From: Lingula anatina
Lineage: Eukaryota; Animalia; Brachiopoda
Length of the DNA: 64,000 nt
Direction: 5' to 3'
Assembly: GCA_051362555.1 (NCBI GenBank)
Contig: CM120648.1
Location: 6,568,587-6,632,586 of the forward strand
In this document: in pieces, positions 25,978-56,177 of the stretch
Layout of the letters: each line of letters opens with the position of its first letter
How positions within the stretch are numbered: position 1 is the first letter of the stretch
Position numbers and translations under genes: made by a program
Notes under the pieces: model-generated
What the model was told of the DNA's origin: nothing
The model's input: only the letters and a program-made list of their open reading frames with translations
Databases searched by the model: none

Positions 25978-26718
25978 ATGCAGGAAGAGATGGGGAATGA
26001 CATTTCTGATACGGTTACGCAGTCAAATAGCGTCAGTGCCCCTGAACTGGATATTGCAGCTGCCGCGGGATTTGGTCATCAACCTTTCGGAAATACGGAC
26101 AACGTTACAATGCATTCCAATGATACCAGCCACTCGAGTTTCTCGCAAAGTGATAACATTATTGCTGGCGTATACATTATGGTGATTGCGATATTTGGCG
26201 TGATAGAGAACGGGGTTGCCGTCATGGTGTACAGACAGAATCGGAGTTTGCAGACTGCAACCAACTTGTTCATTATTTCCATGTGCATCTGTAATCTAGC
26301 GCAATCGGGGCTTTCGTTTCCCCTCGTGGGGATCTCGTATTTGGCCGGAGAGTGGCTCTTTGGCATCACGATTTGTCATCTTTACGCTTTTCTGGTATTT
26401 ACTTTAGGACTGATAGGGATGTTCCATCTGGGCGCCATAGCCGTTGATCGGTACATAGTCATTTGCACGAAGAAGAAGGTTCGGAAAAGCGTTGCCATTA
26501 GGGCCAGCGTTGCCTGCTGGCTGGCCGGGATGGGCTGGGGATCGTTTCCTCTCCTTGGATGGAATGGCTACGAGTATGAACGCGGCCACCCATCTTGCTG
26601 CATCAAGTGGCACTCGAAGAGTCCAGAAGATTTGAGTTATATAATCACCATCATGGTTTGCTGTTTGTTTTTACCATTGGTTATCATGCTGGTGTCGTAT
26701 GGGAGGATATACATAAAG
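25978..26718 (+). CDS. Opsin-like GPCR first exon A (N-terminus to TM5, 247 codons); xenopsin/ciliary-type-like
   Basis: TM1 Asn (ENG), LQTATNLFI, WLFG...C (Cys110), DRY, GWNGYEYE...SCCIKW extracellular loop 2, SYII, P..IM..SY..IY. Phase-0 donor AAG|gtgaga. TM6-7 and Lys296 are not in this exon. Confidence 0.88.
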
Positions 26719-27239
26719 GTGAGAATTTTTTGATAACTTATTGGTTTGATGTGTTTAATGTGTTTGTCATCAGTCGCCTTAAATTTCAGACAAGTTTGGC
26801 CGATGGATGTGACAACATTCCATACAGTTGGGTGCACGTAACAATATTTGAAAAAAATGCATAATAGATCTGGACGTTATACTCACTTTCGTCTTCTCCA
26901 TTAGGAAACTTTGTTGTGGATAAGAGATGCTACAGTCACTATATTGTCAACGTATTAACCATGCCTGGTTTTAAATGTTGTGTAACTCACTGCTTCAGTA
27001 TTCATAAGCTAGGTAGACACTAGGGATTTTATAAGTTTCAAAAGGACCCTTACGAATGAAATAATTGAATTGATAACATCGACAGAGTCGGAAATAAACG
27101 AGGAGAATTGCACGAGTAAGACCTCATGCTGAACACGATAATAATAATAATAATAATAATAATTTTGATCCGCCTTCTCAAAATCTATGTCTGGTCAACT
27201 CCTTTATATGGCTATTATAGAATAATAATAATAATTATT

Positions 27240-27890
27240 ATTATTATTTAAAGTTTAAAATCCAATTATATTCATTGGGCTTGACAATGTGAATATAGAA
27301 TTTAAAAGGCTTGTAAAAAAAAGAAAGCGTAAGTGAAAGCAAATTGATTTAGATAATGTAGAATTGAAAGTGATAATTCATCTTGTCCTTTAAAAAAAGT
27401 CCTGAAGTTTCTATACATATTTTTTTAAAGATACTTTTTAAGTTCATTTTGAAAGTGTCCGGAGAGGCGTTCCTTTAAGTTAAAAGTGGACTCAAATTAC
27501 ATATTACATTGGTTTGGTGCAGCAACTGAAAAAAAGCTGTCAAGTCTATAGGGGTGTTTAAAAGCAAATGGTCAGAAGAGCGCCACTTGCAGGGGGGAGG
27601 GTCGTAATATAATACATAGTCACATTTATATAGCTGGGCAAAATTATAAAATGCAGCATGAGCATGAAATGTTCGAAAGAATTCTTGCTTTTGTAGGAAG
27701 CCAGTGAGTTTGTTTGAGGATAGGAGTATTTGACAGTGGCGTTACGAACGTATTTTGTGGACAACCATAAAGAAGAGAATTGCAGTAACGTAGTCGAAAT
27801 GTTATCCGGGCGTTGAGAATAGTAGATGTAGAGGAGAGACTGAAGAGACGTAGATGAAGCTGTGTTTTTGATGTGAAACATGCATGATTT
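27240..27890 (-). mobile_element. Degenerate L2/CR1-group LINE 3' fragment
   Basis: Minus strand reads TPILKQTHWLPTKARI (27675-27727; L2 'HWLP' motif), followed by an FSVAAP-like segment (~27510-27535) and an (AAT)n tail. Confidence 0.6.
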
Positions 27891-28448
27891 AGAAATTTAG
27901 GCTATTGCTTTTTTTTTCATAGACAGAGACTTGTACTCAAAAACACAGATAATTTTCGCATTAGAAGGAACACTGACCATACTTGCCTCTTGATACTGAG
28001 GGTTACAGCAACGTGTTGTGTTGACTACCTAGCAGAGGTTAAGTCTTGTGTTATGATAGTCAGAGGAGGCTGATGAAACATGGACATTGTATGTACGGAA
28101 ACTTCTACTTGCACACGTGCGCGTACATAAACACGCGTAAATATTTGCTTCGCCATCAGCAAATACTTTATGCGCGTTTGCAGCCCACCCACCTGTGTAC
28201 CAATTGTCTCTTAGGAGATTATAAAGAAAACATGGACTGAATGTCAGAATGGATTCATTTGCCATTGGTAAGTATGGTAAAATCGTCTTTTACCCCAGGA
28301 AACTCCTTTTTTGACAAAAACGAACTGTTGTTTTTCCCTTTTATTATAAAGAATTTCTCCTGAACTCTCAAGTGTTAAAATTTTAGCTTTAAGATCGAGT
28401 TGCTTTTATTATTTTTATCATTGTTTTGTCATTATTCTTGTGTTATGT

Positions 28449-28509
<61 letters not shown>

Positions 28510-29197
28510 CCTTGTAAAGTATAATATAATGATAATTATTCAGTATGTGAATAATGAGCAAATAGAGCTTTATATAATGACCAGATGTAATAGGTAAATA
28601 ACTAATTAAATATTTTAAATAGATATTCAGTTAAATACATGTTCATCTTAGTGTGTGTACAGATTTATGATAAACACTGCATGTAAAAATTACAAAGTTA
28701 TGTATACATAAACTAAACAATTAAACATGACATTAATCTCGAGAAATACGTTCAGGGAACATTAGGTCCGTTTGTTGAAATATGTGCACAGTCTTTTTTA
28801 AATTTTATCCGTGCTTTTCATGACACTTCGGGCACAATTTAGTGAAAAGGAGTCGTGTACGATTCTTTTGAAATGGCTAGGTGATATGCTCGTTTTATGG
28901 CGTCTGTTATCTTTCATTTTATCTTTATAAACTTTTCATTCTTTTAATATCCTAAGGGACATCTTATTTAAGTAATAGAATTTGATACCGAAATGTGCAT
29001 TTCTATGTGAAACGAAATGAAAGTACAATTTTGTACAAATATATACGTTCATTCAGCTAAAACCCAGATGAAAAAACATTTTTAACATTTTAGAATATTT
29101 TGTGTAGCTAGGAACTCGAAAGCCCGAGAGCCGAAAAAAAAACAAAAAAACAACACCCGTATGAGTCCCAGAAAATTTTGTTTATTTTCTGTTTTAT

Positions 29198-29890
29198 GAC
29201 CCTATTCCACACCACGAATTCCACAAACCGCCAGGAATTGATCAATCCCAGGGTACTTACTTTAATTGTGATGAATTCTTTAAGCTGTTGACTGATTCTT
29301 ATTTATTCTTAGTCAGTTCTTAAGATCGTGAAATCGGGACAAACGTTTGAAGCTATTCACAATTTTGGTTCCGAACTCCCGAATGTAAAACATCGTGCAT
29401 GGTTAATCTGTGGTACATTCTTAGTTATATGTAAATGATTCCTAGTACATTTTCAGCCACTCCTATGTATTCTTACCTTAATCTGGGAATCGTGGAACAT
29501 TTATCTGATCACGATTTGGCTACGTTTCTGTAAAGTGGGGCTGAAGGCTTTTTATACCTGTCTTGAGGGAACATTCCTCGACATTTAAAGAATAGTCAAA
29601 GATACTTTTATGATCTTTTATAATCGTGCCAGAATCGTAGGTGCATTTGGCGGATACATAGCTTTCTCTTAACCGAATCCTAACAATCTTCATTCTTAAA
29701 AAATTTAACAAAACGTATCTGTTTCTTGACAATATTCGTGCTGTTCAAGCAAAAGTCTACAAATAGTAAGTATATCTTAACAAATTTGAAACCTTCAGGG
29801 TCAGGATTTCTACCAGAAATGTGCGAAACTCTACGATTTTTAAAATATATCTATTCCTGGAATTCGTAGTCAGAGTGGAATTGGGGCATT
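29198..29890. mobile_element. Older, diverged relative of the 24346-25014 MITE
   Basis: Starts gaccctattccacaccacgaattccacaaaccgccaggaattg and ends ttcctggaattcgtagtcagagtggaattggggcatta, resembling the same TIRs. Confidence 0.55.
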
Positions 29891-32478
29891 AGCCCCATGT
29901 AATAAGATACTCAAGTCACAAACAAGCATGATGCACGTTGAGCACGTGTCTTGCAAGAATTTGTACAGCTTACGTGGATCTTTGAATACGAAGCTGTCAC
30001 AACCCCCTCCCCCGCGCAAGGATGAGTGGGCAACATACTCGTGTAGAAACATGTGCTTAAAGAACAACACATATATTTACAGTACAAGCGAATCTTTTGT
30101 GTATACAGAAAAATAATCCGTCACTTGTATGAACGTGTTCAAGCATCCCTTTCACCTTTTCATTGAAAACAGTGATCATTGATATTTATGTCTTGAGCAG
30201 ATATAACATTTGGTGACATTTGATGTCGCATTGATATGGTATTCAGTGAGTGGCAGTAGGCCAAAATTAGAATCTTAACATTGGTCAGGTATATAAACAT
30301 GAACTAGCCTTGGATGAGATACATGTATGTATCTTATAATGAGCACTCTTCTACATGTTACCTGGGATTTATATTTAAAAAATTGCCCAAAAGTCCAAAT
30401 CGCACATGTGTGATCCATCTTTTTTTCTTTGCGTTTAAACGCAAATGTATCCTATGAAAGTATCGAGGTAGTGGTATGGTATTGTGTTATTGTTACTGGA
30501 TATAACATGTTCTGATTTTAAAAAAATGCCACTGGATTTTTTGGACCCTAATTAAATGGAATCATGACCATTCTAGGCAAACTCCAGAGACTTCGGGACC
30601 CCTCTCCCATTGCAATACACGTGCCATCATGACGTCATAGAGCGAACGCTGGGACGCCTTGTATTTATATAGGCAGCTGATCCGTAATTTTTGATATCAT
30701 CTTTAAACTAACAATTTTACGCACACTTTCTAAAAACCGGGTTGGCTGTCATGTTTTCTGTGGAATGAGTGATTTCATAAATCGTTTCCACATTCATTTC
30801 ACTTTTAAAATTCATGAAAAACAGCAAAATCACCAGCATGTATGATGATATTGACAAAAATTATTTTGACAGTGTTGAGCTTAAACACCTGTTATATACA
30901 GGCAAATAAGATCCTTTGTAGTTTACAGCATTTTAATTAACTAGACACCATGCCGTATAGACGGATATTGCAGTGCGCGTTCAATGTACTGACAGGTATC
31001 TTAATCACACGTTTAGGTACTTTAGCCACCTCTTTTTGAATTTATCTGAGGACCAGTAATACTTTTTATCAAATTTTAACAGTAACCCTGTTAATTATTT
31101 GGTTCTTCAGTTGCCGACAGGTTTGTTTAAATAATCTGGTTTCGTTATTGAACTCGGATTTCTTCTGCATGCTATTCTTTAATTATTTGGTTTTCCTATC
31201 TCCCGTCCACTTCCAGGTGATGTCCGCTCTTCCTGGTAATATTTGTTATACATTTTCTGGGTTTTTACTCAAAAATACACATTATATGTCACCATGCGTT
31301 GATGCGCCTTATTGTCCTTCAACATTTCACAGAAGTTTTTTTTTTTTCTTCCGGGCATTTATTGCCCACTGCGCCCCGCTTGCCTGAGTCGCTGACGTAG
31401 ACTATCGGTGCCAATTAGTGCATTGCGTGATACCGTATTTTTCATTTGAAAGAAGGAAGTTATTTTGTCTTGGCGTGGACGTCGTGGATTGCTACTTCTG
31501 TTGACTTCTCACATATAATTGATTTATATAATTACACAGTGGATTAACAAAATAATGCTGTTTTCTATTGTAATTTTGCCAATTTTTTCTATTTATTTTG
31601 GGCGTATACATTTGCTGACCTGTGCGTGTGCCTCATTTTGAAAAGGCAGTTACCGTTAAATTAAGGTATAATGCGGGGTTCTCGTGTCATATTACCTTTT
31701 TCCGTGGAAAAAAAATTCACTTAATTACGAATTGTTGCTCGAACCGTCCCTGCGCTTTCATTCGATATTTTGTAACAACTGTGAATTATCGGCACGTGAA
31801 ATCGTTGTTTGCGAGGTGTTTTTATTCCGTTGGGAATGTAAAAAGCGACAAAGAATTAATCAATGACTTAGCATTACTCACAGTTCGTTACACTTAAGGG
31901 CGGGATGTGTAGGCATGACGGGCAGGATTTGCTGGCCGCTTCAAGAAGCCTGAAACACAATCTGTTGTGCAAAGCTGTAGCAAATATAAAACACCAAGGT
32001 TACAAGACTGAAAAATTCAATAAGGAATGATAAGGTACAACAGCTACGAGTAAGGGATAATAATGTAACCAATGCAAATCAATACAGCAACGGCAGCAAA
32101 TCTGGGAACAAAGGTTGAAGTGATTCATATCTGCAGCCCGTGAAATAGGGAGTCAATAAATCCGCTTCTTTCAATGACGTAGTCAAACATCGCATTGGAA
32201 CAATAAGGGTATATAGAATGGAACAAAAAAACAGATAATTCCTAAGTCTGTATGATATCGAACATTAAATGTGAAAATAAGTGATATCGATAGTTACCAT
32301 GGTTAAAATTGGGATGGATTGTCCTCACAACTGTCTCTATGCACTGAAGTCGTAAAATAGGACAACACTAATTGGTTTGAAGACCATCAAAAAACACTGC
32401 AGCCGACTAGTGCTCTGCGATAACGAGTTTCCAACAACCGGCAGATCATTTCGTCTGAACACTCGCTAAAGCCACAGA

Positions 32479-33231
32479 ATGAAATGGGGAAATGGTTTCC
32501 ATATTTTTACGTCGCCCAGTGGTTACAATCGCAACATTCTGGGCCTCTGGAATAACACGAATCTTTATGAGAACCATTTTAGCCATCAATATGGCAACTT
32601 CGTAAATTCCAGCTCAATGGTTTCTGCCGGCCGTTTTCCAAGTGATTCTGGATTGACGTACACTCAGAATATACTGGTCGGGGTTTACGTTTTGGTAATA
32701 GCGCTTGGTGGTATACTGGAAAACAGTATCGTGGTGATAGTTTACAGAAAGACAAGACGTTTGCAAAACTCTACAAACCTTCTTCTCGTTTCAACATCCG
32801 TGTGCAATCTATTGGAAGCCACCATATCCTTCCCTCTTTTGGCTGTTTCAAGTTTTGCTGACAGGTGGATCTTCGGGGAGATTGCCTGCCAACTTTATGG
32901 TTTTGTGATATTTTCTCTAGGCCTGGCGGGTATCTTTCATCTCGTTCTTGTCGCCTTAGACCGATACGTCGTGATATGCTCCAAAAAGACCGTCAGCAAG
33001 AGTTTGGCCGTCAAGGGCTGCACGGCCTGCTGGTGCGCCGGAATACTGTGGGCCATTATGCCGTTTTTCGGTTGGAACAGTTACATATATCAACGAGAAC
33101 ATTTGTCGTGCTGCATAAATTGGTATTCGAAGGACCCACAAGATTTAAGTTTCATCTTTACTGTGATGGTGTTTTGTTTATTCCTACCGCTGCTGATAAT
33201 GCTTTTGTCGTATCAGCAGATCTACTTCTCG
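32479..33231 (+). CDS. Opsin-like GPCR first exon B (N-terminus to TM5, 251 codons)
   Basis: Paralog of exon A (ENS, LQNSTNLLL, WIFGEIAC, DRY, GWNSYIYQREHLSCCINW, SYQQIYFS). Phase-0 donor TCG|gtaagt at the homologous codon. Confidence 0.88.
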
Positions 33232-33845
33232 GTAAGTATTTGTACACGCTCATTTATGCGCTTGTTATCGTTTCCGACGTATTATCACGTACACTGAAAA
33301 GTTAAAAACCGTGATAATATACAAGTTGTATATTTTCCTAGATTAGCATGTAGTTATACTCTGTTTAATATTTATGTTGTCCAGCTGTATTTTAGTATTC
33401 TAAGAACATAATGAATCAAGCAGTTAACAAAAAATAAAACAAAAAAAGCATAATCAGTAATCACATCCGACAACATTAAAAAATACAAATTACCGTAAAT
33501 GTATTCATAAATGTTTTTATTTTCCGAATTAAATATTTGTGATCGAGGATAAGCAAATAATTGACAAACTGCGCGCCAACTAACAATATATTTTGCGATT
33601 GATTAGTGCGTTTAAAAAATATCACATTCAGAGGCGGGCATTGCCTTGGCCTGTATTCTTAGTAATGGTGGTGACAAAAGTGACATAGAAATCGTCCATT
33701 AGGTTTCCGTCTATACCTTAAGAGTACGGCGACTCTTTATGGCAACTTGCATGACGTTAACAAGTTCGACTATAAGCATTTTATCGGAATCTAGGGTTTC
33801 ATTAAATTCTTCTGAGTTTGCACAAGATTTATCGAATTTTTTTAG

Positions 33846-33895
<50 letters not shown>

Positions 33896-34787
33896 GTGGT
33901 ATGAGTACATTTGACAGTGGGCATGGACTAATTATAATATATTCTATGATTATGTGGTGTTTAAAGTACAGTAATGATTTGAAAATAGGTTTACATTAAA
34001 ATTGTATTCAGAAAATATTATAATTAAGGTACATGTATATGATCAACTATTTTGAGTGAATATACGTTGGTTGCTTCAGAATATGGTTTCTTTCATTTTT
34101 GAACATTATAACATAATTAGTTACACTCTTTATGGTTTTTCCGGTCACGTAAATGTAGAGGGGATTTGAATTGTTCAGTTGCACAAGTTCCAGTTCCTTT
34201 TGGTGTTTTAATATAGTTTTTTTTAACGAAAATGTAATTTAATTTCCACTTCCTTTGAACATTATAAGTAAATTCTTTGTTTTAATTGACAGCGATTTAG
34301 GTGTCCAATATCTGCCATCTGTATCGGGCATCCCTATTGCAAAGGTTTTTATTTGTTGCACTAATACACTGGCTCTGTCCAGTCAGTGCATTAATGGACA
34401 AAAGGTGATGAAAATGAACTTTTCTCATGGCAACACACGAAATCTTTCCTACATTTTTGCCCTTCATAAAATATCTCTTTTGATTTTGCTCTCCCTGGTT
34501 ATTTTTTTCGAAGTTTCTAATCGAGATGATGTGTGCCCTTTATTTGCACATCTAGATTATACGTTTATATGGCTTTTTTTTTCAACGACACGGTATTTCC
34601 TATCAAAATGTACCCAAGAAAATATCTGTTAAAGAAGCTTTAGAATTTCCTCCGTCATCAGATAGAAGGCAGAATTGTTCGATTATATATATTAAGGGGT
34701 AAGCTGCATAAGAACTACACTAATCGTCACCATATCTGAATAATTTTTTTAATATTACGCAGAATGACTTTGTTCATTCTTTCTCTT

Positions 34788-34836
<49 letters not shown>

Positions 34837-34974
34837 CAGAAACTTTGTATTAATTTCAACGTTGTGCCTTGGAGAAGGGTACATCAATCTAAACAGTGGC
34901 AGATGGCCTTTGTCCAGCAGCGATGGTCTCTTTGCGTGTTAATCTGAAAGATCATTCTTGAATGACAAACGGCA

Positions 34975-35230
34975 TAAGTATACGGTGTACCTTTGGCGAG
35001 TCTGATGTCCTGTCACATGTGCGTTGTTGGCAGTGCATTTTCAAATCATATTTCCCAAAGGCTATAGTGTCTCCAGCACATGTGCTGTGTAAGCATATTA
35101 AGTATACGCGTACGGTATACCTTTGGCGAGTCTGATGTCCTGTCTCTTGTGCGTTGTAGGCAGTGCAATTTCAATGTATATTTCCCAAAGGCCATAGTGT
35201 GTCCAGCACATGTGCTGTGTGAGCATATTT
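34975..35230. repeat. Two-copy tandem duplication of ~130 bp
   Basis: tacggt.tacctttggcgagtctgatgtcctgtc...ccagcacatgtgctgtgt.agcatatt at 34981 and 35111. Confidence 0.85.
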
Positions 35231-36636
35231 CCCTCTCAGTAATGTCTCTCTCTCTCTGTATTAACCTTAATTTAAAACATGTACCATAGCGGTGATTTAA
35301 TAACCAAATCTCTAAATGTATGTTATTTGGAAAATATTCTTTTCAAGTTTTAAAGGATGCTTTCAGTAGCAAAAGGGTTAAGTAGATTTGTCATCATGGC
35401 TTCACCATTTTGCTTAAGTTAAACTGAAGATCAGTTTGATTGTGTTAAATAGGCCACTAGTATAGGCCCCTATGTATAGAATGGCTTTAATTTAGGAATC
35501 ACTTGGGTCTGTTTTAAGTGTTTTATCTTGTATATGATATATGTAGGGAATACATTATTTAGTATATTGTTAGTAAAGTTCGGTCGGTGGCAGTGAAAGT
35601 TGATTTGCCGCATTTCCTTGTGAGACACCAGTTAGAGAGTGACTATTGTGTTCTTTGGAAAGTGAAACACACGTTATTAATGAAAAGCTTCATAGGCAAA
35701 TTTGATTCAGTGAAGTCGAGGCAAAATATGTCTACAAACAGTGCACGTAACGCGGTACTGAAGTTTCACCTTTTTGTACAATAAGGGGCAAGCAATTTGA
35801 AACTGTGATATATTTTGAAAATATCTTACAATAACAAATATTCAAAAGAAAAAATGTACAGTGAAGAAAACCACGTCTGTTTGTTTCCTCAAAATGAAAT
35901 GCCGTTTGTATTCCCAGTTCTATAAAGCATGTGCAATATCTTCACATAGTTATTTTGGCCATTAAAGTTTTCTTACATTATAAATAACATCACTCTGCTG
36001 TGCAAGTGGCACAGATATGCTGCTTCACCTTTTGGGACTTTTTTCTTTCCGTTGGTTCCAAAAGTGATGTATAATTATCGTCGACTGCACTTTGGGTTAC
36101 ATTTTCACAAAAAAAGTTGCCCTCTTTTATTAGATCTGCTCTCCAGTTCTGAGAAACATATCTGCTTTCCGCTTGGAATTATTTCCTCTCAAGAGAATGG
36201 CATGGCACCGTGCGGCTTTATCTCTTTAAAACACGATTAGTTGTCACGCACTCTTTAATCCCCTGATAATATTTTGTTATTTTCTCGCTTGATCAATTTG
36301 GGTAAACTTTTGTTCGCAATCAGGTGATATCTCTCGGGCTTTGATACAAGTCTGGGGCCTTGATGACCCTTCCATCAAGAACCAGGTTGAGACTTGGTGC
36401 TCTAATAACCTTCCTATGTTCTCTGTTTACTTTTATTCTTCTGAAATCAATTTGAATCAACCCATGCGTACTTGATGTATTCTTCATTGCCCCACTGTTA
36501 TTCCGTATATATTTTTTAAAAAATTGGTTCCTGTGGTGTTGTTGCACATTTACACCGTTGAGAATTTTAATCATTTCATACATTTTCGTCTGTGTCCGCT
36601 TAAGTTAATCCGGGAGACAAAGATCAATGTCCTCCG

Positions 36637-36688
<52 letters not shown>

Positions 36689-39600
36689 TGGAACTTAGTT
36701 GTTCCTGTTTTGTAACACCAACGATAACACCAACTGTTATGATGGCCAGATTTGGTTTTGATGTTGCATCGACGAACGGCCACGTTTTCCCAAAGGGGCT
36801 ACCACTGTTAATTAATGCCAATCTGACACCAAGACCTTTTCATTATTTCATGTAGTTTTCCGTCTTTTATTTTCTTCTTTCTTTCTTATATTCTTTTTTT
36901 ACTTGTTTCTTATTTTTACTTATATAAAAAGCTGCACTGGAAATAATATTTTAAGGCAACGGTTCCAAATGATTATATACCCCTAAATCCTCTGTACAGT
37001 ACCTGTTGATGAGAATGGAAATTTGTGTGGCTTCAAACCCCGCTTAGTGTTCGATTAGGTTGATTGCAATTATTTTGAACTTGATCTCTTAAGCCGCTGT
37101 AAGACAGACTTGTGGCAGGTTGGAGATAAATATAGGCCCACACAGCGCTTCTGTTTCGACTGCACACCAGGTATAAGATTTGGCATGCATGACATTTGAG
37201 TGAATAACTAGAAAGACAATGTAATTCCTTGGCTGTTGCAGAGGCCGAAATTAAGCTTCGCTTATCTATTTCTAAAGACCATAAATGTTATCTTCTGCAT
37301 AATATAACGCAATCTTGTCGTTTTGATAAATTTTGATGACTTTGGTATGGGAAGAAAGCTGAAAAGAAGTCACTCGTGTAATACTATTGCGCCTCAATAA
37401 ATCTAGGTCTTACCATAAAACGATAAAACATCGGCATATCCTTTTGATCGTAATTATTTGTTCTTTTATCAAACGAATTAGGATTAAGCCCAACAAAATG
37501 GAAGAAAGGAAAATTTAAAAAAAAGCTCTGTGTATCGAAATAACACAAACGTGTCAAACGGGAAGAAAATGGCTGGAATATGTAGATGGCTTAACTGAAT
37601 TTCGGATCTATATTACGCATCGACTTACCGGGGTATCATATGTGTTCATATGTGTAATATATGTACTTGTAGAGAACGCATGTCCCCGCTTAGGTCCACA
37701 CTGAAATGCTAAGACATTAAAAAATTAGATTGGTAAAAAGCTAAGTGTCATTGAGGAGTGGGCGTCCTCTGTGACAAGTTAAACTGTGTGTAAAAATGGC
37801 AAAATACAAGAACTATCAACGTACTCAACCTATAACCTGATAACCATGGTCAGATGGTACATGTATAAAGAGATTTTACTCTGATGTTCGTATTAACCAA
37901 CTCGATCTTACTCATTATCTGTTTCATTATTTTTAGAATGTGTTAAATTCCCCAGTGCACTACAACGATGTCGGCGTTATGACATAAACCTTGAAAACTA
38001 ACTCACCTGTCAAATAAAACAGCACTTTAAAACAAAAAAGACAGAATGTGGAAAGAAGCTACTATTTCACGGTACAATTTCATTTTCAAAGAAATATTTA
38101 AAGTTGGGGTCAGAAATGTCGCGTAATGATATAAAGCTATGTCAAAAACTGAAAAAATAACACGTAATCTACTTTGAAGAAGATTTTACCATGTATCACG
38201 TTAAGTCTTCTTGCAAGTGCTTAAAGCAGTACAAGTGAAGTCACGTCGGTGCTATGGCACGACCTAAAGCTATTAAGTTAAAAAATGCTGACGGTATAAG
38301 GCTTCTCTTATTCATATTAAGGACACCGTAGAAAAGGATTGGCCTAACACTTGGCGGGCTGCCTGTCTATAGGCAGTATGCGGATAACAAAGAGTACGTA
38401 AGGAAAGCAATCGAGATGTTTCGTTAGCCTTGTACGAGTGACCATCCTAACGAACATAGCGAGGCGAAGGAAGACAGGAGATCTATTGATGTACATATGT
38501 TTTTGGCTCGTTGGAAATGTTTCATATGTTTGTTTCAGTAAATTCTGTTATTTGATATTTGCATATTAAATGTATAAGTGATTGTAAACTGCATATAAAC
38601 TTCTCTCTCTCACACACACACACATACACATACACACGCATTAACGAATACGAACGAACGCACATACTTTCACACATGCACACGCGCACATGACATGTAA
38701 CATGCACATTGAAAAAAATCGTCCCTTTTTAAAAAATTTCATGGAAGGATTGGCCTGAAAATTATACCCATAAGTATCCAACGCATTTGGCACTTAAACC
38801 ATTCATCTACTTGTACAGATGACGCAAAATTTATTAACACAATTAACCAACTCCAATTCTGCTCTCTAGTCATTTCCATGCAAAAATTCTCGAAGGTACA
38901 GTAAGTAATACACAGTGCACAAAAGTGCAAATAATTCAAACCAGAAAAAAAATATTTGTGAATATCTCAAATTAAGCGTTGGCTCTGATAGCAGTTACCA
39001 CAATACCGAGAAGAGAGAAACAGTATCTGGCTAATATGATATGAGCCAGCCAAAGAAGCTTTTAAAATCGATTCCATTTCCTCCCACATTTATATCCCTT
39101 ATCCTTATTTTTGCAACCTCCGGGGTCATGTTTTTTACTACCTAAATGCTACCAAACACACAAGTCGATAAAGTACAATGATTTGACATGCAGCCCAAGG
39201 TATTTTTCAGTCCATCAAGAATAACCAAAAATGCACGCCAAAGTGCCTTCGGTGTCAGAACACACTGTTTATGTACGACGCACTCAAGGTTTGCGCACCT
39301 TAGAAAGGTTATGTTGTCAAGACCCCGAAAAACGCTTCTGCCCTTGGGAATAACGCCTCTGTGTTAACCTTTCTAAATGTTCGTCAGAATATATCAATTT
39401 CCTCCCCTACGGGGTCTTACTGAAGCTGAGGTTAGTGCTACCTCAGTCAGGTCACTACCATCCATGTTCGTTTGGCAATTTAACTTCGATTAACTCGGGC
39501 TCGTTTTAAATCCCGAGTGTATTTTTAAAGCATAGAAAAAATCTGATCGTTCGGTTTTAGTTAAATATCCTGGACTTATCGTTTTTTGTTTGGTTTAAGG

Positions 39601-41049
39601 GTATTAGTGCTGTCAGGCCTTGTTACACCGGGCTTGGAGAACAAAAATATTATAGGCTTTTCTTTTGTTACAGAGATTTGTGAAACTGAGACAACATATA
39701 CATTCGTTTCCCAAGCCGTGTAAAAGGAGCTTTATAACACTTCTCATATTCATCGTTTGAATGTGATGTTGACGATGGAATGAAAACACCCGCACTTGCT
39801 GAGTATAGATGTACATTTGTAAGCACCTTGATTGAAAAAAGTATGTAATTTTCGTACAATATTGTGTTTCTGTCATAGCATTTGCTTGGAGTTATGGACG
39901 GTATCATGAATAAAAGCGGGCAGAATTCATCCACGAAAATGTCAACTGCTGTCATAAGCCACTTATCAAGCTTAAAGGAATAATAACTCTTCGTTTCGGC
40001 CAAAAAATGAATTTTCCTGGAGTAAACAACAATTTTCCATACTTACCAATGGTTAATGAATCAAATTTTACATTCAAAGTTAGTCCCTGGTTTTTTTTCT
40101 CTAAAAAGTTTTTTTTTTTTTTTTGTTAAAATCTCTTAAGAGATTTTAACAGAGTATAGCCATCATTGGAGGTCACGTGGTCTAAAGACAAGCTCAGATA
40201 TCAGAATAACAACTATAACTGCTGTTTTTGTGGTAAAACAGAATATATTATATTTCTATGAGTTATTCACAATGTTTTTATTGTGAAATATAGATCTCAT
40301 ACGAAGAGTTATTATCCCTTTAACTAAGCTGTCTTGGACAGTGCCAATTCGCGATCCCCGACGTCAGTGGGTGTGATAGCGGTCTCAACTGTCACATTCG
40401 CAATGTTGTCCTTCACCCACTGGGCGGTTTTCTAAAGAGTTACTGTATGAGATGCGCTGTCTGTGGATTTTAGATGCGTATTTTGTTAGAACAAACTATG
40501 TACTTCATTAAAAGAGTTGTGCGAGTAATGGTGATCATAATCTGCATATTTTTGCGTCGATCCATATCCCTTTGGGTGTCTTGATTACTGGTTTGAAGAT
40601 AAACGCACGAATGACTGTTGGCAATAAGGGGTTCTTTTAAGACGCTTCGACGCTGTTTTTGATAGTGCCATCTGCTTATTCTATATCAAATAATCAAAGT
40701 CCAAGTTTTCTACTAAGCATTTTTTGATTTTGTGCGTTTAATGCAGGAATATGCTTCGCAATAAGCACCCGCTGTCGGATGAATCCGATACAGATGTACA
40801 GGTAATAGATCCACGCACATGTAACACCTGCTTAGCAAATCACGTTGTTAGGAACACCTTTGTTCCATTTTTTTCTGATTGGATTGTTGTTTGCAGGCAG
40901 GCACGTGCATGCAAAAGACCACTTAAAATAATAGTCAAAACATACTAACATGCTATCGCGTCTCTAGAACATGCTATAGAACAGAACGTGTTTTTATATG
41001 TAAGCGTTGGATTCGGGGTTGGTTCAGGTGCAAGAAGGGGGGAAGCACC

Positions 41050-41080
<31 letters not shown>

Positions 41081-44000
41081 ACAAATCACAAGTTGTTTTC
41101 AAATACCCCTGAACTAAGTACGGGAAGTGGGCTGGGTGCGAAAAAGGAGCTTTGTCAACCTCTTATAGCCAAATTTGTACTTGAATAAGTCATTAATATC
41201 TTGGGCCTACACCTGAATCAACTGATACATTGTAGGTAAGTGTGTTTTTAATTGCAGTAACTTCCGGTTTCATTTTATGTCTAAAACACGTAGGAAACGC
41301 TGCAGGTACAGGTATATAGTTCCCAGCGCCCAGGGCTTAGTATCCAGGTGGTTCGTGCCATTTCTGCGTGTCTCTGGACTTACCGACGTTTTTTTTTACC
41401 TGACACAGGTGCTGCAGAAATGCTAGGCACGACTGCCAGCGTTTTTGTTAACACGCAACTGTGCAATGAACCAGCCGTAGCCGGTCTAAAATTACGTTAT
41501 CTGTCTAACTGCATTTTATCTTAACCTGCGGCGTGAAAATTGACTTTTAAACAACTTGAGGCTGTAGACTAAAAGGTTAAGCAAATTTTACCTGGCAGTT
41601 CAAGACTTCTGTTTGTTTTTGAGGGGTTTATTTTCTCAATTGTTTCACTATCAGTGTCACATTATTATTTTTACTTGTTATACACAGACCTTTCTAATAT
41701 GGCTAATATTTAATTCTGAACAATTCTGTGTGCATTGTCCAGGGATATTTTTTGCTCACGATTCACGACATCACTCAATCAGATGGCTTTTTGTAGAAAC
41801 CATCCTCGATGTGTAAAAACAATTCAACAAATCAGCACAGTACCAGCTGTGAAGGCTATGAACCCATTCAGAACAGCGGACTAACAGATCCGCGGATCAA
41901 ACATGGCGACCCACTAAAAAAGCTTGTCGCTTAATTCCCGATAAGGCACAGAATAAGGGGATTACGCAGCGACATTTATGGGTCGGCCATATTTGATCCG
42001 CAGTTCTGTTAGCCCTCTGTTCTGAATGCGATCTATGGCCTTCATGTGGGACAAGTTCAATGATTCGGATTGTGTGGTAAACCTGCACAATTTTCGTTCT
42101 TTGAAACCATCAATTAATCGAATAGTTATTCGAACTGACCCATTACTGATCGCGTTGGGGGCAGAACTGACATTTATGAAACGCTCTCTGAAGATATTGC
42201 GTGAGGCGTGAAAAGGTTAAGATTAATGAAAAAATTTGTTTACAACCTGATTTCTTCGGTAAATCAGTTTAGGTTACTTCATGGTTTAGATGTTTTCTTT
42301 GCTGGGTCTGCTCAGTCTTCACTCGCCGTGCGCCCCCCCCCCCCCCCCCCCTCCTCCCACTTCCCCCTTCCTTGTGTCACTCAGAGAAATATTGCAGGTA
42401 ACTCTTCAAATCTGGCAGCTGGAAACGCCCCCTCGTTACCCCAAGATTTATATACTTAACACTCAAGGAAACATCAGGGATGTGTTTTCTATCTCCTTTT
42501 TTGTTTCATCTGATCGAATAAAGCAGTAGTTTTTCTTCGGTCAACTGCTGGCAATAAAATCGTTGTTTACCTCCGTTATTTCGATGTTTATTTAGAGCAT
42601 CTTCATCAAGGAATGATGTTATGCAGGCCGATAAACTCTGCCCAGTATTATATCATGAGTATTGGAGGTAAACAACAATTTGAAATTCAATACTAGCCGT
42701 TAATTGAAGAAAATACCGATTTGTTTTCAGTATCTGTCGCAGCTGATGTTGTTCATGTCTGATGTATGAAGTTAGCGCCATTGGAATAACACACTGTAGT
42801 TCACAGAACCAGAATTAGTCTAATCTGTCTTCCTATAAGTGGAATGTATACGTAGTCACTACCGAGGAGCTTATAAATTGCATTGTAATAAATGAAAACT
42901 GCTTTGTGAAATCAACGATTGATTATTTTGACATTCAAAAATCATTGTTATATCTGAAAACACCATCACCGCTTTTAAAGTTACTGATACCGGATGAGGT
43001 CGTTTACATTAACAACCCCAGGCGCATATTTGTTGGCGTTTTTTTTATTGTACGTTATTTTTTCCATGAAATTTATCATGAGTTTGTTACATTTCTGTAT
43101 AACTGTGACAATTGTAACAGTGAACAATTTGTCCAGTTCACAGTGAACACTAGTTCGTATATGAAAACTGCATCTCTGAGTCATTAAAAGTTGCATTAGT
43201 ACTGAGGTGGTCTGAGACCGACTTCATAAAAAAAAATATGTGTCTGTGATAAAAATTATATCAGTGACACAGCCTTTAAACTAAAGACATCAGTCACTCA
43301 ATACGATACATTTGTGGTATTTTAGTTTTAAGATTTTAAACGGTTATAAAAATCAATTTTCGGGAAGGAGAACTATGTTAATTGTCATCATACATGTATG
43401 GTATCTGCCCTCCTATTCCTGCTTCATATTTGTTTATTTATGCACCTTTTCATTTTGTTTTTGAAAAAAAAAAAGAAAAAGCCAATTAAGAATGTCTGAT
43501 AGGGTGCACAGTGCTAGTTTTGTTTTGATATATCACCAGAGCTAGGCCTGGAAACCAAGAAAATTTCATTTGAAAAAAGTACATTTTTCTTCCTTAAGCT
43601 AAATTATATGTTTCAGAAATTCCTACATTAGTGTGTAAAATACAACTGCAGCTATCCAGCAATGTGTATTATAAGCTTTTTTTTATTTACCAAAAAGCTT
43701 CTTTTGTGCAACTACCAAACATATCTGTATTTCACAAAAAATTCCGTGGGGTCGTAAACGACTCCCCCCGGTAGGAATATGTTGCTAAATATGCCGGTAT
43801 AATTAGGGTTAAATATCCACTGGGGCCCACCTAGCGTATAACACTTGTATAAGATTGCGCTGAAATCGACCTGGCATGTCATGCTTAATTGCATTGGTTT
43901 TTGCTAGGATTGCACATGACGCATGCTTCATTAGTGGCTTCCATACTGCAGAACGCTACTTTCTATAGCACGCGATCTGAGGCTTCCGGGGTACGGTCGT

Positions 44001-45089
44001 TCAGCCTCAAGAGCATTTCTAAAATTGCATTAATAGACGGCGCGGAAAACAGGAAAGAATGCAAACGTAAGATAGCCTTAGCTACGCTAGCCCCGTTAAC
44101 GTGTATACGTAAGTATAAAAAAAAAGATACTTCATTGTGAACCTTTCACCGTTCAAACAATCATTTGTGATTCTTATTTGATCTGAATTGACTGGAATGT
44201 GCAATGAAGGATGATATCGGTGCCTCTCTACTTACAGAAATGAAAAAAAAGATTAGTACTTCAATTACAGTAATGCCCATGGACCGACAACCTGCTCTGC
44301 GCTACAAATTGCATTTTCAAACGAAATTGCTTTCGTGATGCCGCTCCTGCCGACACGAAAGGCCCATGCTCACGTGGGCATTTTAACCTGTAAGCTTCCT
44401 TGCGGAGTTTACCTAACCGGGGTTTGCATTGCAGTTGCGCACTGACTCTTTGCACGGTATTGATTATTTGAGATCGACTTGATAACGAAAGTAGAGGCTC
44501 GTTTAATCACAGTGCAAAGCGAGTTGTGGACGTCTGCTTATCACTCGCAAGTGGGGAGAAAGCACACGCGCAGTGCCAGAATGAAGCCAACGTGGAAAGT
44601 TCAGCGTAATTGACGGTGTATGTTTGGCGGCGGTTTGGGAGTGCGCACAAAGGACAGAAATTGTGGGAAAATTCAACCAAAAAACATCAAAAGTTAGTAT
44701 ACTGACTGAAATTTAATGCAACGAAATGCAGAAAAACATATCGTGAAAAATGATACAACCAGTATTTCAGAACTGTTTCTATTAGATTGACATTTTGGGA
44801 CAATTTTTTAAAAGCGTTTTGCCAGAAGAAAAAATGAAAACCCTACAAAAACCCACTAAACCAGGCTTATATTATACCTGGAACAAATAAGTAGATCAGT
44901 TGGAGATCGTCCTTAGCATATATTTTCAATCAAAGGGCGATTGAAACTAAACGAATTACATCACCGGAATGCGGGCAATGTGCGATAATTGAAATTCTAT
45001 ATGGACCATATGAATAGCAAGAATAATAGGCCAACAATTGCACTAACCATATCCAAGTAAAAAGCACATTAAGCTGAGACCCACCGAGC

Positions 45090-45854
45090 ATGGACGGCAC
45101 CTTGACGAGAGAAATGTATGACATCATTTTTACTCAAGTTACGGACAAGGACAATAAACTGATGTATGCCGACGAAAACTTGACGAATGACATTGCGGGG
45201 CACTTCTACCAAATTTCGCCTACCTCAAATACCACGGTGTTATCCTCTGTGACGCCACTGCCAAATCAGAGTCACCTTGCCCATAACGAGAACATCTTCG
45301 CCGGTGTTTTTGTGTCTCTGACTACACTAGCTGGGATAATAGAAAACGGGATTGTTGTCATAGTATACAGACGGACAAAAAGGCTCCAGACTTCCACCAA
45401 CCTTTTTCTCCTCTCTATGTGTGTTTGCAACTTGGTGGAGGCGGCTCTCTCGTTTCCTCTCATGGCTAGCTCAAGTTTTGCTCAACGGTGGCTCTTCAGC
45501 AAAATAGGCTGCCAAATCTATGCCTTTATCATATTCTCTTTGGGTCTGACGGGGATATTTCATCTTGTGATTGTAGCGGTAGATAGATATCTAGTCATAT
45601 GCAAAGACACTAAAGTCAAAAAAGGTTCAGCCATCAAAGGGAGTATAGCTTGCTGGCTGTCTGGAATACTATGGGCGACGCTACCGTTTTTAGGGTGGAA
45701 TGGTTATATCTTTGAGCGTGCGCATTTGTCATGCTGCATTAACTGGTACTCAAAGGATCCTCGAGATTTGAGCTACATTGTGACAATCATGGTCTTCTGT
45801 CTGTTTGTACCAATGGCTGTGATGTCGTTCACCTACGGAAGAATATACATTACG
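45090..45854 (+). CDS. Opsin-like GPCR first exon C (N-terminus to TM5, 255 codons from the first ATG)
   Basis: Paralog of A and B (ENG, LQTSTNLFL, WLFSKIGC, DRY, GWNGYIFERAHLSCCINW, TYGRIYIT). Phase-0 donor ACG|gtgagt at the homologous codon. The exact start Met is uncertain. Confidence 0.88.
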
Positions 45855-48167
45855 GTGAGTATTGATATTGCTTGGCAGCATTGGCATATTTTTTCTAACG
45901 TTATTTCAGGCGAGTGATTAAGGTAAAACGTTGCCTCTGGCAATCTCTGAAACTGAACACCTGTCTAAGTGCCTCACACCCATTTCTTGAAATTACTTTA
46001 TTCGTTTCAAGTGGCACGTGCCTTTCGCACCGAACAAACAACACTGAGCTATTTTTAATACCCCGTGCAACGATATCACAAAACATATTGTCTGGAAATG
46101 CTCTGGAGAAGTCATGTGTCTTCTCATCTCTTTGTGCGACGAATGTTTTTCATCCTGTGTTTCTAGAATTAATCCTTTTTGCAAGCCGTGAACTCCGAGA
46201 TCTTAAACCGCGTAGGCACGATTCTTGTCGTTCTCTTCTCACCTGGTGTGACAGCTCTGGTTTTCTACAAACCACACTGCCAATCCTTCAGCTGTACACC
46301 CCTCTACGTTCAGGTCATCACTATCACTAGACTTTATTCCGGTCACTAAACATGGTAAAAATCCCGGCCGTAAAGATTATGTATACATGTACTTTTTTAA
46401 CCCTCAGAACATTGACGGAATTAACAGTTACCAGATGGTTACGAGTTTGCTCTTCGAGAGGCAAAACAGATCTTTTTCCGCTTGCTTTAGCTCAAATTAC
46501 CGTTCCAATTAGATCACGTTTGGCACATTTGATCCATTGATATTGTGTTGAAGCGTACCCTTGAACTTCTGGCAGGGTCATCTGGGGCCCATTATTGGCT
46601 AACGAGTTTATAATTAATACACATATTTTGGTAAAAAAATGACTCCTTTTCGCAGTAATAAAAAAATCATAAAACGTTTGCTGAGGGGGCATCTTAAAAG
46701 TAATCATGCAGATTGTATTTTAATCTTTAAAATTTAAACCTGTGATCTAAGGTTCGTTTCAAAACGAAGAGTTTATTAATGTCATTGGGCGCGCATCAGT
46801 TTTCCAGCAAAGTGAAGCCGCTGATGCCACATTGAGCCGAAAAACAGTACTAGTTGGCCAACTTTCTTCCGTGTTGTTATCATAAGCTTACCCGCAGCCT
46901 GTATCCTTTAGTTCATAATTCAACAGTTTTTTGTCGAGGGAGGCAAACGTAATCCTTTATTGGCTTCATTTAAAAAACGAGACAACTCCCACGACCTGAC
47001 TAAAGGGAAATTAAAAAAAGGAATTTAGGTAGCGCTATCATGAAAACCAAACCGATAAGCACTTTGTAGAATAAAAATGGCAATAAAACCACAGACTCAT
47101 ATAACAACGGGCATCTAGCTGTTTGAATGCTAACTGTTCCGCTGAGTTAGATCTAGCCGCCGTTTTCTGGACCTGTCCTAAGCTGGCTCAGAACGTGAAC
47201 CTCTTCCTGCCTTTTTCTACATGTACGTTTTACCCACTATTTCAATGAATCTATTTAGTCGATTTTAAATAACAGTGATCATTATTCTCCAACTACTTTC
47301 TTCAGGATTGTTGCTGACAGTAAAAAGAAATTACAGAAAAAAGTTTTCGTCTATTAATGTCTTTAGTCGTCAGTTTGGCGTCTAAATTTAGGCCTGTTCT
47401 GGCTATAAGGGAATGAGCGTATTGGACAAAATCAAAACTGTTGGATATAAATGACGTCATACGAGACTACAAAAAGTACGAGTATCCGCGTGAGATAAGG
47501 TTCAGTTATTAGCGATAAGGGCGAAATTTTATGTGGCGAGAATAGGGTTTATGAAAACAGTTAAAGAAGTCAAACGCAAATCATGGTGGATTCGTGCTTG
47601 AAACTAAGTTTTAAGAACTAAAAAAAGGGAAAATAGCCATGGATAAATCCCGACAGATTTTGTTCATTGCCGCACCAAGCTTGCGATGGTATTCTTGCCG
47701 ACCTCACTCTCGCACAAATCCCTCAATGTTTCGCATGACTTTACCTTTAGTTGCGATAATTCATGGTTTCTCGGATAATTCCCATTCAACGCATTGACTT
47801 TGCCGCTCACATTAACTTTTCTGATTCGCTTTAGATGATTACCGGTATATTCATTAGTTGCGTGCAAGATGGAGGAAAAAGGTGTCCGAGTACAATTGCA
47901 TAATCACTGGGCAGTAAAGCTCATTATGTAGAGGTGAAGGATAATTTCTTCCACAGGGGATGTGATTATCTCCAACCTTGACCATTATATCTCTAAGCTG
48001 TAGGTAATACCGCCGGTCGTTCGCTGCCCAGCAGCAGAATTAACCTTGACAGTTACTAAACACAATGGTTTATAATTGCAAACAGATTCCATAAAAAATC
48101 GCATTATGGGGGGGGGGGGGTGTCTTATAGGTTAGCAACTTGCGGCGCCACGCCACACCTCAATGGG

Positions 48168-48169
<2 letters not shown>

Positions 48170-48214
<45 letters not shown>

Positions 48215-48310
48215 GTAGTAGTAGTAGTAGTAGAAGTAGTAGTAGTTGTTGTTGTTGTTGCTGTTGTTGTAATTGTACTTTATAGACCATTAGTAATAGT
48301 AGTAGTAGAA
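48170..48310. repeat. Compound microsatellite (TTA)n(GTA)n(GTT)n
   Basis: Seen directly. Other microsatellites occur at 13757 (AAT), 28452 (TA), 33848 (TTA), 34792 (TG), 36638 (TA) and 62183 (AAT/AAAT). Confidence 0.95.
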
Positions 48311-49467
48311 GTGGAAGTATTTGCTGTTATATACCGGTATTTGATTTCTATCTTCAAAGTTATTTTTTCATGAAGGAGAAAAAAATGTCCGACGCGTTAC
48401 TGCTTTTGCCTACTTTTATGCACTTGTCTTCTGTCACCCAAACACCCAGGCAGTTACGACACGTTTTTAATGACACACCTTACACGGTTCGTGCTTCATT
48501 AAATGACAACTCCCAAGGCTCAGCAGAGTGTTCCTCTAGGGCACTTTAATTTTATTGATTTCTCAGTTTATCTATTTATAACAAAAATTAATTCATGAAG
48601 CATCTAACTGATCAGTCCATTTCTTTTTTTACTTGTACATTTATTCATTAATTCATATCTGCATGCTTCGACACAATTTTTAGTGCATAAATCAATTTTG
48701 TAAATAATGAAATTCATTATTTGTTAATCCTTGTATGTATCTATATAACATTTTCGTCATTATTACTGTTATTAATATCATAATTAATATTATTAATAAA
48801 CGTATACCCAAAAGCCCCTTTACCACCCAAAACCTGGGTACAATATGATGAAACATCTCGTTGTCTTAATTGCCAGTATATCTCATAAAGGCAGCACGTA
48901 GCGCCGGTGCGTTAAGTCCGATGCCGTACATCAAGCATGGGAGACGTCATATTAGATTACCCTAGAAATACCGTGGCCTGGACGACTGCGCGAAGTTACG
49001 TCTCGCACATGAGAGATCGGAGACTAGTTAACCAAAATTCCATAATTAAATAGATAACTGTAGTAGGTAGGCTCATTGATTAACATAGGGAGTTTTCAGA
49101 ATTCTACGGGGCTGTTTCATTAATAGTGCTTGGTTCGAGTAGAATTTGTCTATGATGCAATATTATACGTGAAATGAGCACAGGAATCAAATTTATAATT
49201 TATAATATTTATAATAATTTTGACTTTTTTTACTCGAGCTTTATACCTGACGGTGTGGTCTTCATTTATCTATTACCGCATACGGTTGAGCAGCAAATCA
49301 CCCCGCAAGCCAGCATGACATAACTTTAACCGACATTTGTTCGTAATAATATTACCATAGAGCCGGAAGTCATACACACACTCACATCGTAACTCAATTA
49401 CAGACCTACCAGTATTGGATGTTCTTAAAGACCTTAACCTCAGGATTTATAGATAAATTTTGAGGAG

Positions 49468-49498
<31 letters not shown>

Positions 49499-50088
49499 GG
49501 GGGTAGTGGGGCACACAAACCGCCCTTTTTGGCGGGTAATGTCCGCTTTAGGTGCATTGTTAAAACTGAGCTAGGTACACGAATATTTCATGGTAAAAAG
49601 GTTCACTTTTTTATGAAAAGACACCCCCTCCCCACGCCGCTATGAAATTGCTTTCTACGAGACTAAATTGATGAAAAATCCTTCATACTGAAAAACGGCA
49701 GCTATGTAGAGAATCCCCATGCATCCATTCTACTAGATTATCCCTGTTACGTGAACATTTAACTGTCAGACCTCCAAGCACCTGGGAAAAATGATCGGGG
49801 CCTGGTTGCAGGTAATGGGAACATTGAACTCGTAAACACATTTTGTCAACCACAGGGGGGATATCCAAACGCAAAATGTACCACTTGTGTGCATCATGAA
49901 CGCTTGTGGCAATTAATTAGTCAGTTCTGTCGACAATATAACTAGTATTGCCTTTCCTGAAATTGCCCATTGTGTCAACATGTGTTTATAAAGCAGAGGG
50001 GACGTATACGCAACCCGGGATGGTTTCTGCAGCGCAAATATACTACATTTACATGTACAAAGCCATACAATGCGCGTAAGGCGTTTAG

Positions 50089-50123
<35 letters not shown>

Positions 50124-50190
50124 TGCCCTGTAATTCAAGCAATTTTCCTGTGTCACCAGGATATGCCGTGCAAAAGTTATTTTCTCTTTA

Positions 50191-50303
50191 ACCCGGCAAA
50201 CGCAGAACGTTTTATAACGTTACCATAACGTGGCAATAACGTTTTTTTTTTGGGTAAAATTAACGTTATGGTAACGTTATAATAAAGTTATGTGTTTGCC
50301 GTG
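50191..50303. mobile_element. Short MITE-like inverted-repeat element
   Basis: cggcaaacgcagaacgttttataacgttaccataacgt ... acgttatggtaacgttataataaagttatgtgtttgccg. Confidence 0.6.
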
Positions 50304-51630
50304 AAATTCGTTTTCGATTTTTTTTTTTAATTTTAAATTTACACTGTCACTGGTAGAACCTGCCATTTACACAAATCGAGTTATTCAAAATCTGGGAACG
50401 TTTAAGTTTTGAAGAGAAACTTTAAAATAGGGACATTTGTCGTTATTCTGTGAACGGTGATTACCAAAGAGGAAATGGAATTTCCAGGAAAATTAAAGTT
50501 AAAAGGTCTAGCGCTCCATGTAGGTCTCTAAACGTTTATTGGAAGTAATCAATCTCCAGTTTACACCTCCAATCACATATTATTAAGTTTCTTATTACCG
50601 ACGCCTGGGAGACCATGTTATGCCGTTAATTCTTAGTTTGTTAATTAACAGTGTAACTCACATACTTCGTTAGAGACCGGATATATTTTGATACACTTTC
50701 AGGACAAAAGCGTATAACCAATTAGATTTGGTGGTGATCCACTGATTGAATAATCAAGTAATTAACACTAGAAAATTAGCTGCCTTGGCGGAGGTCCGCT
50801 CTCTGTATACGTCACCGGTAATGATTCAGGTGAGGTGTCTGCACTGACATAACTACCATTTACCGAGAATATGAACTTCATGTTATAACATGAACTAGAT
50901 GTTAGAAGGCTTTCTATCAATAATTTTCCATCCACCCGTCGCAGCTCTTTTAAATTGCAGCAATGTTTTTGTGATATCCTGGTTGCAAAATTTGAAATAT
51001 CACCTGGTTTTTATATCCCCGCTCCGAAACGCAGACCATTTAACCTTAGGTTTATTTAAACCTCAACGAAAGCAAAAGAAAAATAAATTTACTTGTTTAC
51101 TTTTGTTAGCAGGATCTATATCAACGACCGTCTAAAGAAGGGTGCTTTATATAAGCCTTAATACGAATATATCTAAGCGCACGTAACAGGTTACTTGCTG
51201 GAACCGATGGCGATTAATTCAATTTTCTTTAACCAATTTCCTGCCTCCGTCATGGAGAAGCTAATGTGAATTGGGATCATGTCCTCGCAAAGACCCCGAA
51301 AATCAAATATATTCGTATTAGATCAGGCAATTGCCACTTCCAAGTCTTGCAATAAGTAAAATTGAAAGCGTTGCTGTCATGGAAAAACGATTATATTACA
51401 TCTTCTCATAAAAATCGGACGTTCTGATCGACGCAATTGAAGAAATTCATTAGTGTGTTAATAAACCTATCCGATTTTGAAACGCCTCTGTGACAGGTAC
51501 ATTTCAAACAATAACCCAATGAGGAGTGAATAAGCAGGTCTTAAAGGCGTTTTGGCTCGTTTTGCCATCTGATTGCTGCTGTGATGAATTCCCCCACACT
51601 GTATTTTAATACCAACCGAGAATAGTCAGA

Positions 51631-51670
<40 letters not shown>

Positions 51671-56064: not shown

Positions 56065-56177
56065 CCTATTGTCCTTCGGGAACATGAGGGATTAAGCGAG
56101 AATGCGAGGCCTTCTACAATAACTCTAGAAGGCCTCGTATTCTCGCTTTATCCCGAATGTCCCGCGAGGACAATAGG
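56065..56177. repeat. Imperfect fold-back inverted repeat (~50-bp arms, ~10-nt loop)
   Basis: cctattgtccttcggg...aagcgagaatgcgaggccttct / agaaggcctcgtattctcgctt...gaggacaatagg. Confidence 0.85.

Follow-up and report, generated by a model that had tools for sequence, protein, structure and literature searches.

Three tandem first exons of a Lingula anatina xenopsin, probably spliced onto one shared downstream tail

What can an opsin locus make when its front half, from the N-terminus to the end of the fifth transmembrane helix (TM5), is present three times in tandem and nothing between the copies encodes TM6 or TM7? Such a locus lies within a stretch of 64,000 nucleotides (nt) of the brachiopod Lingula anatina, contig CM120648.1, which we call the window and whose numbering is used throughout. 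The three copies are called exons A, B, and C. We consider it probable that each has its own start and is spliced onto one shared downstream tail, so that a single gene would give rise to three photopigments. The features on which this reading builds are listed below, with lengths of predicted products in amino acids (aa) and a slash marking each exon-intron boundary.

25978..26718, + strand: coding part of exon A, TM1-5; 741 nt, 247 aa, from the N-terminus to the end of TM5
26719, + strand: exon A donor GTGAGA, phase 0 (YGRIYIK/GTGAGA)
26719..32478, + strand: gap between A and B, 5,760 nt; dispersed repeats, without a TM6/7 exon or Pfam match
32479..33231, + strand: coding part of exon B, TM1-5; 753 nt, 251 aa
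33232, + strand: exon B donor GTAAGT, phase 0 (YQQIYFS/GTAAGT)
33232..45089, + strand: gap between B and C, 11,858 nt; transcribed dispersed repeats near 39972-40324 and 41850-42044, without a TM6/7 exon or Pfam match
45090..45854, + strand: coding part of exon C, TM1-5; 765 nt, 255 aa; the exon used by database model XP_013400870.1
45855, + strand: exon C donor GTGAGT, phase 0 (YGRIYIT/GTGAGT)
45855..64000, + strand: 5' part of the intron following exon C (intron length ≥18,146 nt); the tail exon or exons encoding TM6-7 presumably lie beyond the window

A preliminary description of this DNA had reported three intact exons on the same strand, and their coordinates, lengths, ATGs, frames, and donors were all borne out on re-check. 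Every copy begins with an ATG, has a length that is a multiple of 3, and stays open until TM5 ends, at a codon common to all three, with an in-frame stop 12-24 nt 5' of the ATG. The glycosylated N-termini claimed earlier agree with the presence of three N-x-S/T sequons in each exon, of which two or three precede TM1. The Pfam model 7tm_1 aligned in A, B, and C only over model positions 1 to 177-179 of 260, and no fourth copy of the first exon was found in the 64-kb window.

The rest of the receptor is seen in a database model that includes exon C. The last 146 residues of this exon are 99% identical to XP_013400870.1 (P0001), a Lingula anatina protein that carries the database label "peropsin" and differs from the window-encoded sequence at one residue. 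From the exon C donor, this protein runs on for 136 aa with loop 3, TM6, TM7, the retinal lysine, NPIIY, and NQQ, and the joining of exon C to the tail is thus on record in one database model. The retinal lysine, Lys296, sits in that tail, outside the window, and would be present in products of A and B only if the same tail is used. We also note that the model begins at exon C Met110, so that the N-terminus, TM1, and part of TM2 (window 45090-45416) are absent from it.

Is this receptor a peropsin? A phylogenetic tree of TM1-5 was built with 48 rows, comprising the three exons and the 45 best-covering fetched relatives, and rooted at the midpoint; P0001 was left out as too short. In this tree, A, B, and C fall on the side of the named xenopsins (support 97/96), where a branch with support 100/95 has them alone on one side; P0007, a full-length xenopsin known from a contig of 2.2 kb, is adjacent to them (99/95). 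Xenopsins of Terebratalia, Owenia, and flatworms are the closest relatives that carry a name, and among solved structures the exons come nearest to squid and spider rhodopsins. Two further Lingula xenopsins (P0012 and P0013), each with its own TM1-5, are 33-37% identical to A, B, and C and lie outside their clade. The intron that follows TM5 is located at about bovine codon 229, in phase 0. This location appears to fit the text of PMC5648526 on the first of two conserved xenopsin introns, described there as close to the second c-opsin intron (here and below, statements from cited papers refer to the available parts of their text). The tripeptide after TM7, NQQ in XP_013400870.1 and NRQ in P0007, is a variant of the NKQ given in the same source. 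The supplement of Ramirez 2016, in its available part, lists XP_013400870 beside the Terebratalia xenopsin, and the C form has already been placed in published trees, as far as these were accessible, as one truncated gene. The "peropsin" label is ruled out by the TM1-5 tree together with this published placement.

Do A and B have TM6-7 exons of their own? We searched both strands of the 64 kb by tblastn with the locus's own tail and obtained nothing credible, the best match (E 0.003), at 11 kb on the minus strand, being a basic stretch. A hidden Markov model (HMM) built from the tails of the fetched relatives reached at best 8.3 bits (E 0.43) over the translated window. Planted pieces of five held-out xenopsins were used to gauge its power: 70 of 70 pieces of 25 aa and 72 of 75 pieces of 20 aa stood above the window background, and power dropped for shorter pieces, to 61 of 80 (15 aa) and 41 of 85 (12 aa). 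Ordinary-sized private TM6-7 exons can be excluded from the 64-kb window, and the earlier statement that both gaps and the 18 kb after C lack such exons is upheld by tblastn and by an HMM of demonstrated power. As this power is about half at 12 aa, private micro-exons could have escaped it; a string of them would break the two-intron structure reported for xenopsin genes (PMC5648526, PMC7529461). The gaps and the sequence downstream of C showed no sign of another gene, with 0 Pfam matches among 69 frames (≥70 aa, leaving out those overlapping the exons and a few of low complexity) and no match in Rfam. A metagenome scan returned only one irrelevant match of 28%, and six short motifs sought in the supplement of PMC10097855, which holds Lingula tree labels, were not found in it. 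Among proteins of 155-494 aa, the range covered by the protein search, only one of 6 matches has exon C's tail, namely the one joined to C.

How would one tail serve three front ends? Because A, B, and C group together next to P0007, the exon copies would have arisen after the split from the P0007 gene, their nearest full-length relative, through two tandem duplications, within the long first intron, of the promoter together with exon 1. Transcripts initiated at A or B would skip the later first exons and splice to the tail acceptor used by C. We infer these joins of A and B to the tail; the downstream first exons would be skipped because they lack good acceptors, and by a crude pyrimidine count no strong acceptor lies within 120 nt of any of the three ATGs. 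A shared non-coding leader before A, B, and C is possible. The predicted products are 383 (A), 387 (B), and 391 (C) aa long, and would have Lys296, loop 3, TM6, TM7, helix 8, and the tail in common while differing in N-terminus, expression, and tuning. From the general anatomy of G-protein-coupled receptors (GPCRs), isoforms that share these parts would therefore probably couple to the same G protein and be shut off in the same way.

If A and B are used in this manner, they should bear the marks of selection. Over 188 TM1-5 codons, pairs among the three exons are 54-64% identical in amino acids, with proportions of nonsynonymous differences (pN) of 0.21-0.27 and of synonymous differences (pS) of 0.75-0.77, the latter saturated. 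The expectation of dN/dS well below 1 holds for A-C (0.08); for the other pairs, dS is saturated and the ratio is not estimable. In simulations, an unselected frame stayed open in 0 of 500 cases at 0.5 changes per site and in 19-27% at 0.05. None of six relative-rate tests was significant (p 0.42-0.86), so there is no excess change in A or B, and among the 33 columns conserved in the family, 29 are kept in A, 26 in B, and 27 in C. In extracellular loop 2, 13 residues are identical between B and C, and 7 of the 13 codons differ, all silently, which rules out gene conversion as the cause of the identity. The donor word G/GTRAG, which occurs roughly once per 9,000 positions of the gaps, is kept at all three exons, unlike the exon flanks, which are unalignable except for a shared repeat. 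A donor under selection must be spliced to some partner, and apart from the tail joined to C no candidate tail was found. Purifying selection, equal rates, and kept donors agree with the earlier argument that open frames speak against dead fragments. From these comparisons, A and B appear not to be decaying, on evidence of long-term constraint that is compatible with a very recent loss.

Several observations weigh against a shared tail. Saturated dS marks past constraint and says nothing of present use. No protein with the front end of A or B was found in the protein databases, and no second front end was found on the P0007 tail, for which a single one is on record. The DNA analyzed ends at 64000, and more than one tail set might lie beyond that point. 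Upstream of the exons, TATA-like words occur at -260 before A and at -269 before the ATG of B (TATATAG), and none precedes C; a search for shared upstream motifs, run at three settings, yielded a single common word each time, within the ranges of 0-2, 0-6, and 0-10 that 12 random controls gave. No indexed RNA run contains this stretch. RNA was consulted in 8 of 9 raw-read runs with the same species label (all but X5), of which 6-30% each was read and whose tissues are unknown; depth on the exons was 0 to ~1, and the read counts, converted from depth, are approximate. Exon A had no read in any of the 8 runs. Exon B had ~2 reads in run X9, 1 in X2, and none in the other six, intronic reads being about as frequent, and no splice joint or loose end was listed at any of the three donors. 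In the two bins holding exon C, X7 gave ~4 reads and X8 gave ~3, and neither X1 nor X4 gave any. With the gene near silent in the sampled runs, we regard this RNA test as empty rather than negative. The proposal of variable first exons with a shared tail thus stands as the best fit to the layout, the constraint, the donors, and the single tail, while the joint between A or B and the tail is absent from these 8 low-depth runs.

Repeats dominated the RNA read tables across the window. Thousands of divergent RNA reads, with inverted-end joints, fall on a dispersed repeat of ~350 nt at 39972-40324 (also at 23392-23721 and 28219-28349), which resembles a miniature inverted-repeat element common in transcripts.

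The near absence of RNA on A and B would also be expected if these two exons, once the front ends of complete tandem genes or of functional isoforms, had recently been orphaned or silenced, or if their 3' exons were missing from the assembly, leaving C as the only working copy. That only C is modelled in the databases agrees with this, as does the loss from B of Glu181, a residue kept in 18 of 19 tabulated relatives and replaced by Asp in the other, and in our simulations roughly half of the unselected frames outlasted 0.02 changes per site. However, C itself is barely expressed in the same RNA runs, neither A nor B has a raised rate, and two separate recent losses would be needed, with no TM6-7 trace left in either gap. 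Both gaps are, moreover, shorter than C's own first intron. As for loss in assembly, the 64-kb window is free of N, and an older database model set (in which one residue of C differs from the window) is likewise without full A or B proteins. We therefore judge such a loss to be unlikely.

Since the analysis stops at 64000 and tail-only models shorter than 155 aa fell outside the range of the protein search, A and B might instead belong to interleaved genes, with private unannotated TM6-7 exons beyond the window or, through trans-splicing, elsewhere. Tandem duplication would hardly yield A-B-C followed by three tails, donors and acceptors would have to be paired correctly across similar sites, and a single such tail was seen in the range searched, which makes this arrangement very improbable. 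Least credible to us is that A and B give truncated five-helix proteins, or regulatory or dominant-negative transcripts, instead of pigments. Their frames do read past the donors into the intron, ending after 5 (A) and 21 (B) codons, as C's does after 20, but the donors are kept and the read-through tails are not conserved, the three being unlike each other. Further, the disulfide cysteines and the pocket lid formed by extracellular loop 2 are under constraint, which would be senseless unless retinal were bound via the lysine of TM7.

How far would the three pigments differ? Bovine numbering was set from motif anchors, and 24 positions of the retinal pocket were tabulated. Tyr113, Phe118, Gly121, Leu122, Tyr178, Ser186, Cys187, Cys188, Ile189, Trp191, and Cys211 are common to A, B, and C, and 13 of the 24 positions vary little in kind. 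Positions 86 and 181 stand out, in that A has Gln86/Glu181, B has Glu86/Gln181, and C has Glu86/Glu181. The preliminary description, which had most of the retinal pocket being swapped, was overstated in this respect, as core pocket residues are identical and changes fall chiefly at these two positions. Gln181 of B aligns with a Glu of squid and spider rhodopsin. According to PMC12401545, Glu at the aligned position is the counterion in spider Rh1, and the substitution E181Q renders retinochrome "counterion-less" unless chloride substitutes; a deprotonated Schiff base, as reported in PMC10729476, means UV sensitivity. A different spectrum is suggested for B because its usual Glu181 counterion is replaced by Gln. 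Speculatively, B (Gln181, Tyr113) could be UV-shifted, or its counterion could be Glu86, Glu183, or chloride. That one opsin gene yields three spectrally distinct photopigments, with B lacking the Glu181 counterion and a reciprocal Glu/Gln exchange at 86 and 181, is a proposal that we advance tentatively and judge slightly less likely than not. Gln181 of B is covered by no read and may be a one-base error, an allele, or early decay.

Two further pocket residues set this group apart. Cys188 is present in A, B, C, and P0007 and in none of the other 18 tabulated relatives, and Asp83 is replaced by Asn in A, B, and C and by His in P0007. In other opsins, Cys188 is tied to self-regenerating photocycles.

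To which known systems is this layout closest? The preliminary description had likened it to UGT1A and to the protocadherins, in which single cells choose among promoters stochastically, with CTCF sites. As no upstream motif is shared beyond the random control, there is no sign of such a choice at the Lingula locus, and the suggested protocadherin-style promoter choice is unsupported. For the same reason, the insect Or and Gr loci, UGT1A, and GCNT2 are closer models. In common with these clusters, the locus has large paralogous first exons in tandem, of like length and with the same frame and donor position, and no copies of constant exons lie between the variable exons (power being high from 20 aa). 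Or and Gr proteins are ligand-gated channels, not GPCRs; the Lingula receptor, unlike these, is a class A GPCR whose shared part carries the chromophore lysine. Insect loci such as Blattella germanica Gr60a-m (PMC6175461) do, as here, place tandem long first exons before shared C-terminal exons in genes for seven-helix sensory receptors, some isoforms being pseudogenic; their splices are commonly supported by RNA, whereas those of Lingula A and B are deduced from genomic layout. UGT1A, UGT2A, and GCNT2, described in PMC1885805, likewise repeat a large variable first exon in tandem ahead of the constant exons, with the copies nearly equal in length and in the same frame. The variable exons of GCNT2 number three as well, and in these clusters the variable part carries ligand recognition. 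They encode vertebrate enzymes, however, and for UGT1 that paper documents separate promoters and a conserved motif upstream, in contrast to the lack of a shared motif at the Lingula locus. Protocadherins alpha and gamma, treated in the same paper, have variable first and constant downstream exons as well, with more than a dozen variable exons rather than three.

Among opsins, the lophotrochozoan xenopsins (Terebratalia ADZ24786.1, Owenia xenopsin3, and Lingula XP_013397676.1 and XP_013382905.1) belong to the same clade, with a first intron near the end of TM5 and, in the tails on record, Lys296 and an NxQ tripeptide. In the accessible literature, these are treated as having one front end per gene, and they differ from the A/B/C group in its Asn83, Cys188, and, for B, Gln181. 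Zebrafish LWS-1/2 and RH2-1 to 4 are likewise tandem opsin duplicates that may differ in spectrum and expression; as far as the available sources describe them, those arrays consist of complete genes under a shared enhancer, whereas Lingula repeats only exon 1. Six database proteins with two matched stretches each (P0009, P0048, P0065, P0116, P0121, and P0147) were considered as xenopsins with chained first exons and rejected, as they are fused or duplicated fish models, a crustacean model, or long-loop proteins.

The preliminary description knew of no account of this arrangement in opsins. We likewise found no opsin precedent by title or abstract start, a search whose coverage stopped short of subscription papers and bioRxiv supplements, and the available parts of PMC10097855, PMC10733189, PMC11373642, and PMC11886862 do not mention extra first exons. 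The layout, with its key splice predicted, is known in other families and appears to be new for opsins as far as searched.

Elsewhere in the window, an intronless frame of 1,072 aa at 1922-5140 on the minus strand is rich in hydrophobic segments and probably carries a signal peptide. It matched no Pfam family and gave no usable Atlas match, and may encode a large membrane protein, as yet unexplained. A gene resembling MLF (myeloid leukemia factor) at ~10500-14000, with an exon near 13448-13801, is the upstream neighbor on the opposite (minus) strand; its exon has a weak match to Pfam Mlf1IP (E 0.002), under the curated cut-off. A tandem array at 8960-9842 comprises about six units of 145 nt that are 80-84% alike.

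Opsin repertoires are counted as whole genes, and opsin pipelines, as described in the accessible text of PMC10733189, retain only models with Lys296, so first exons like these would be discarded as fragments. If our reading is true, counts of full-length Lys296 models miss pigments. If the splicing holds, an animal can enlarge its pigment set by duplicating only the half that bears the chromophore lid, with one G-protein face kept, which would be a route to spectral diversity with a fixed signalling output. The three pigments would then be a natural set of chimeras with identical TM6-7, one of them without Glu181, in which the contribution of TM1-5 to tuning and to the choice of counterion becomes directly testable.

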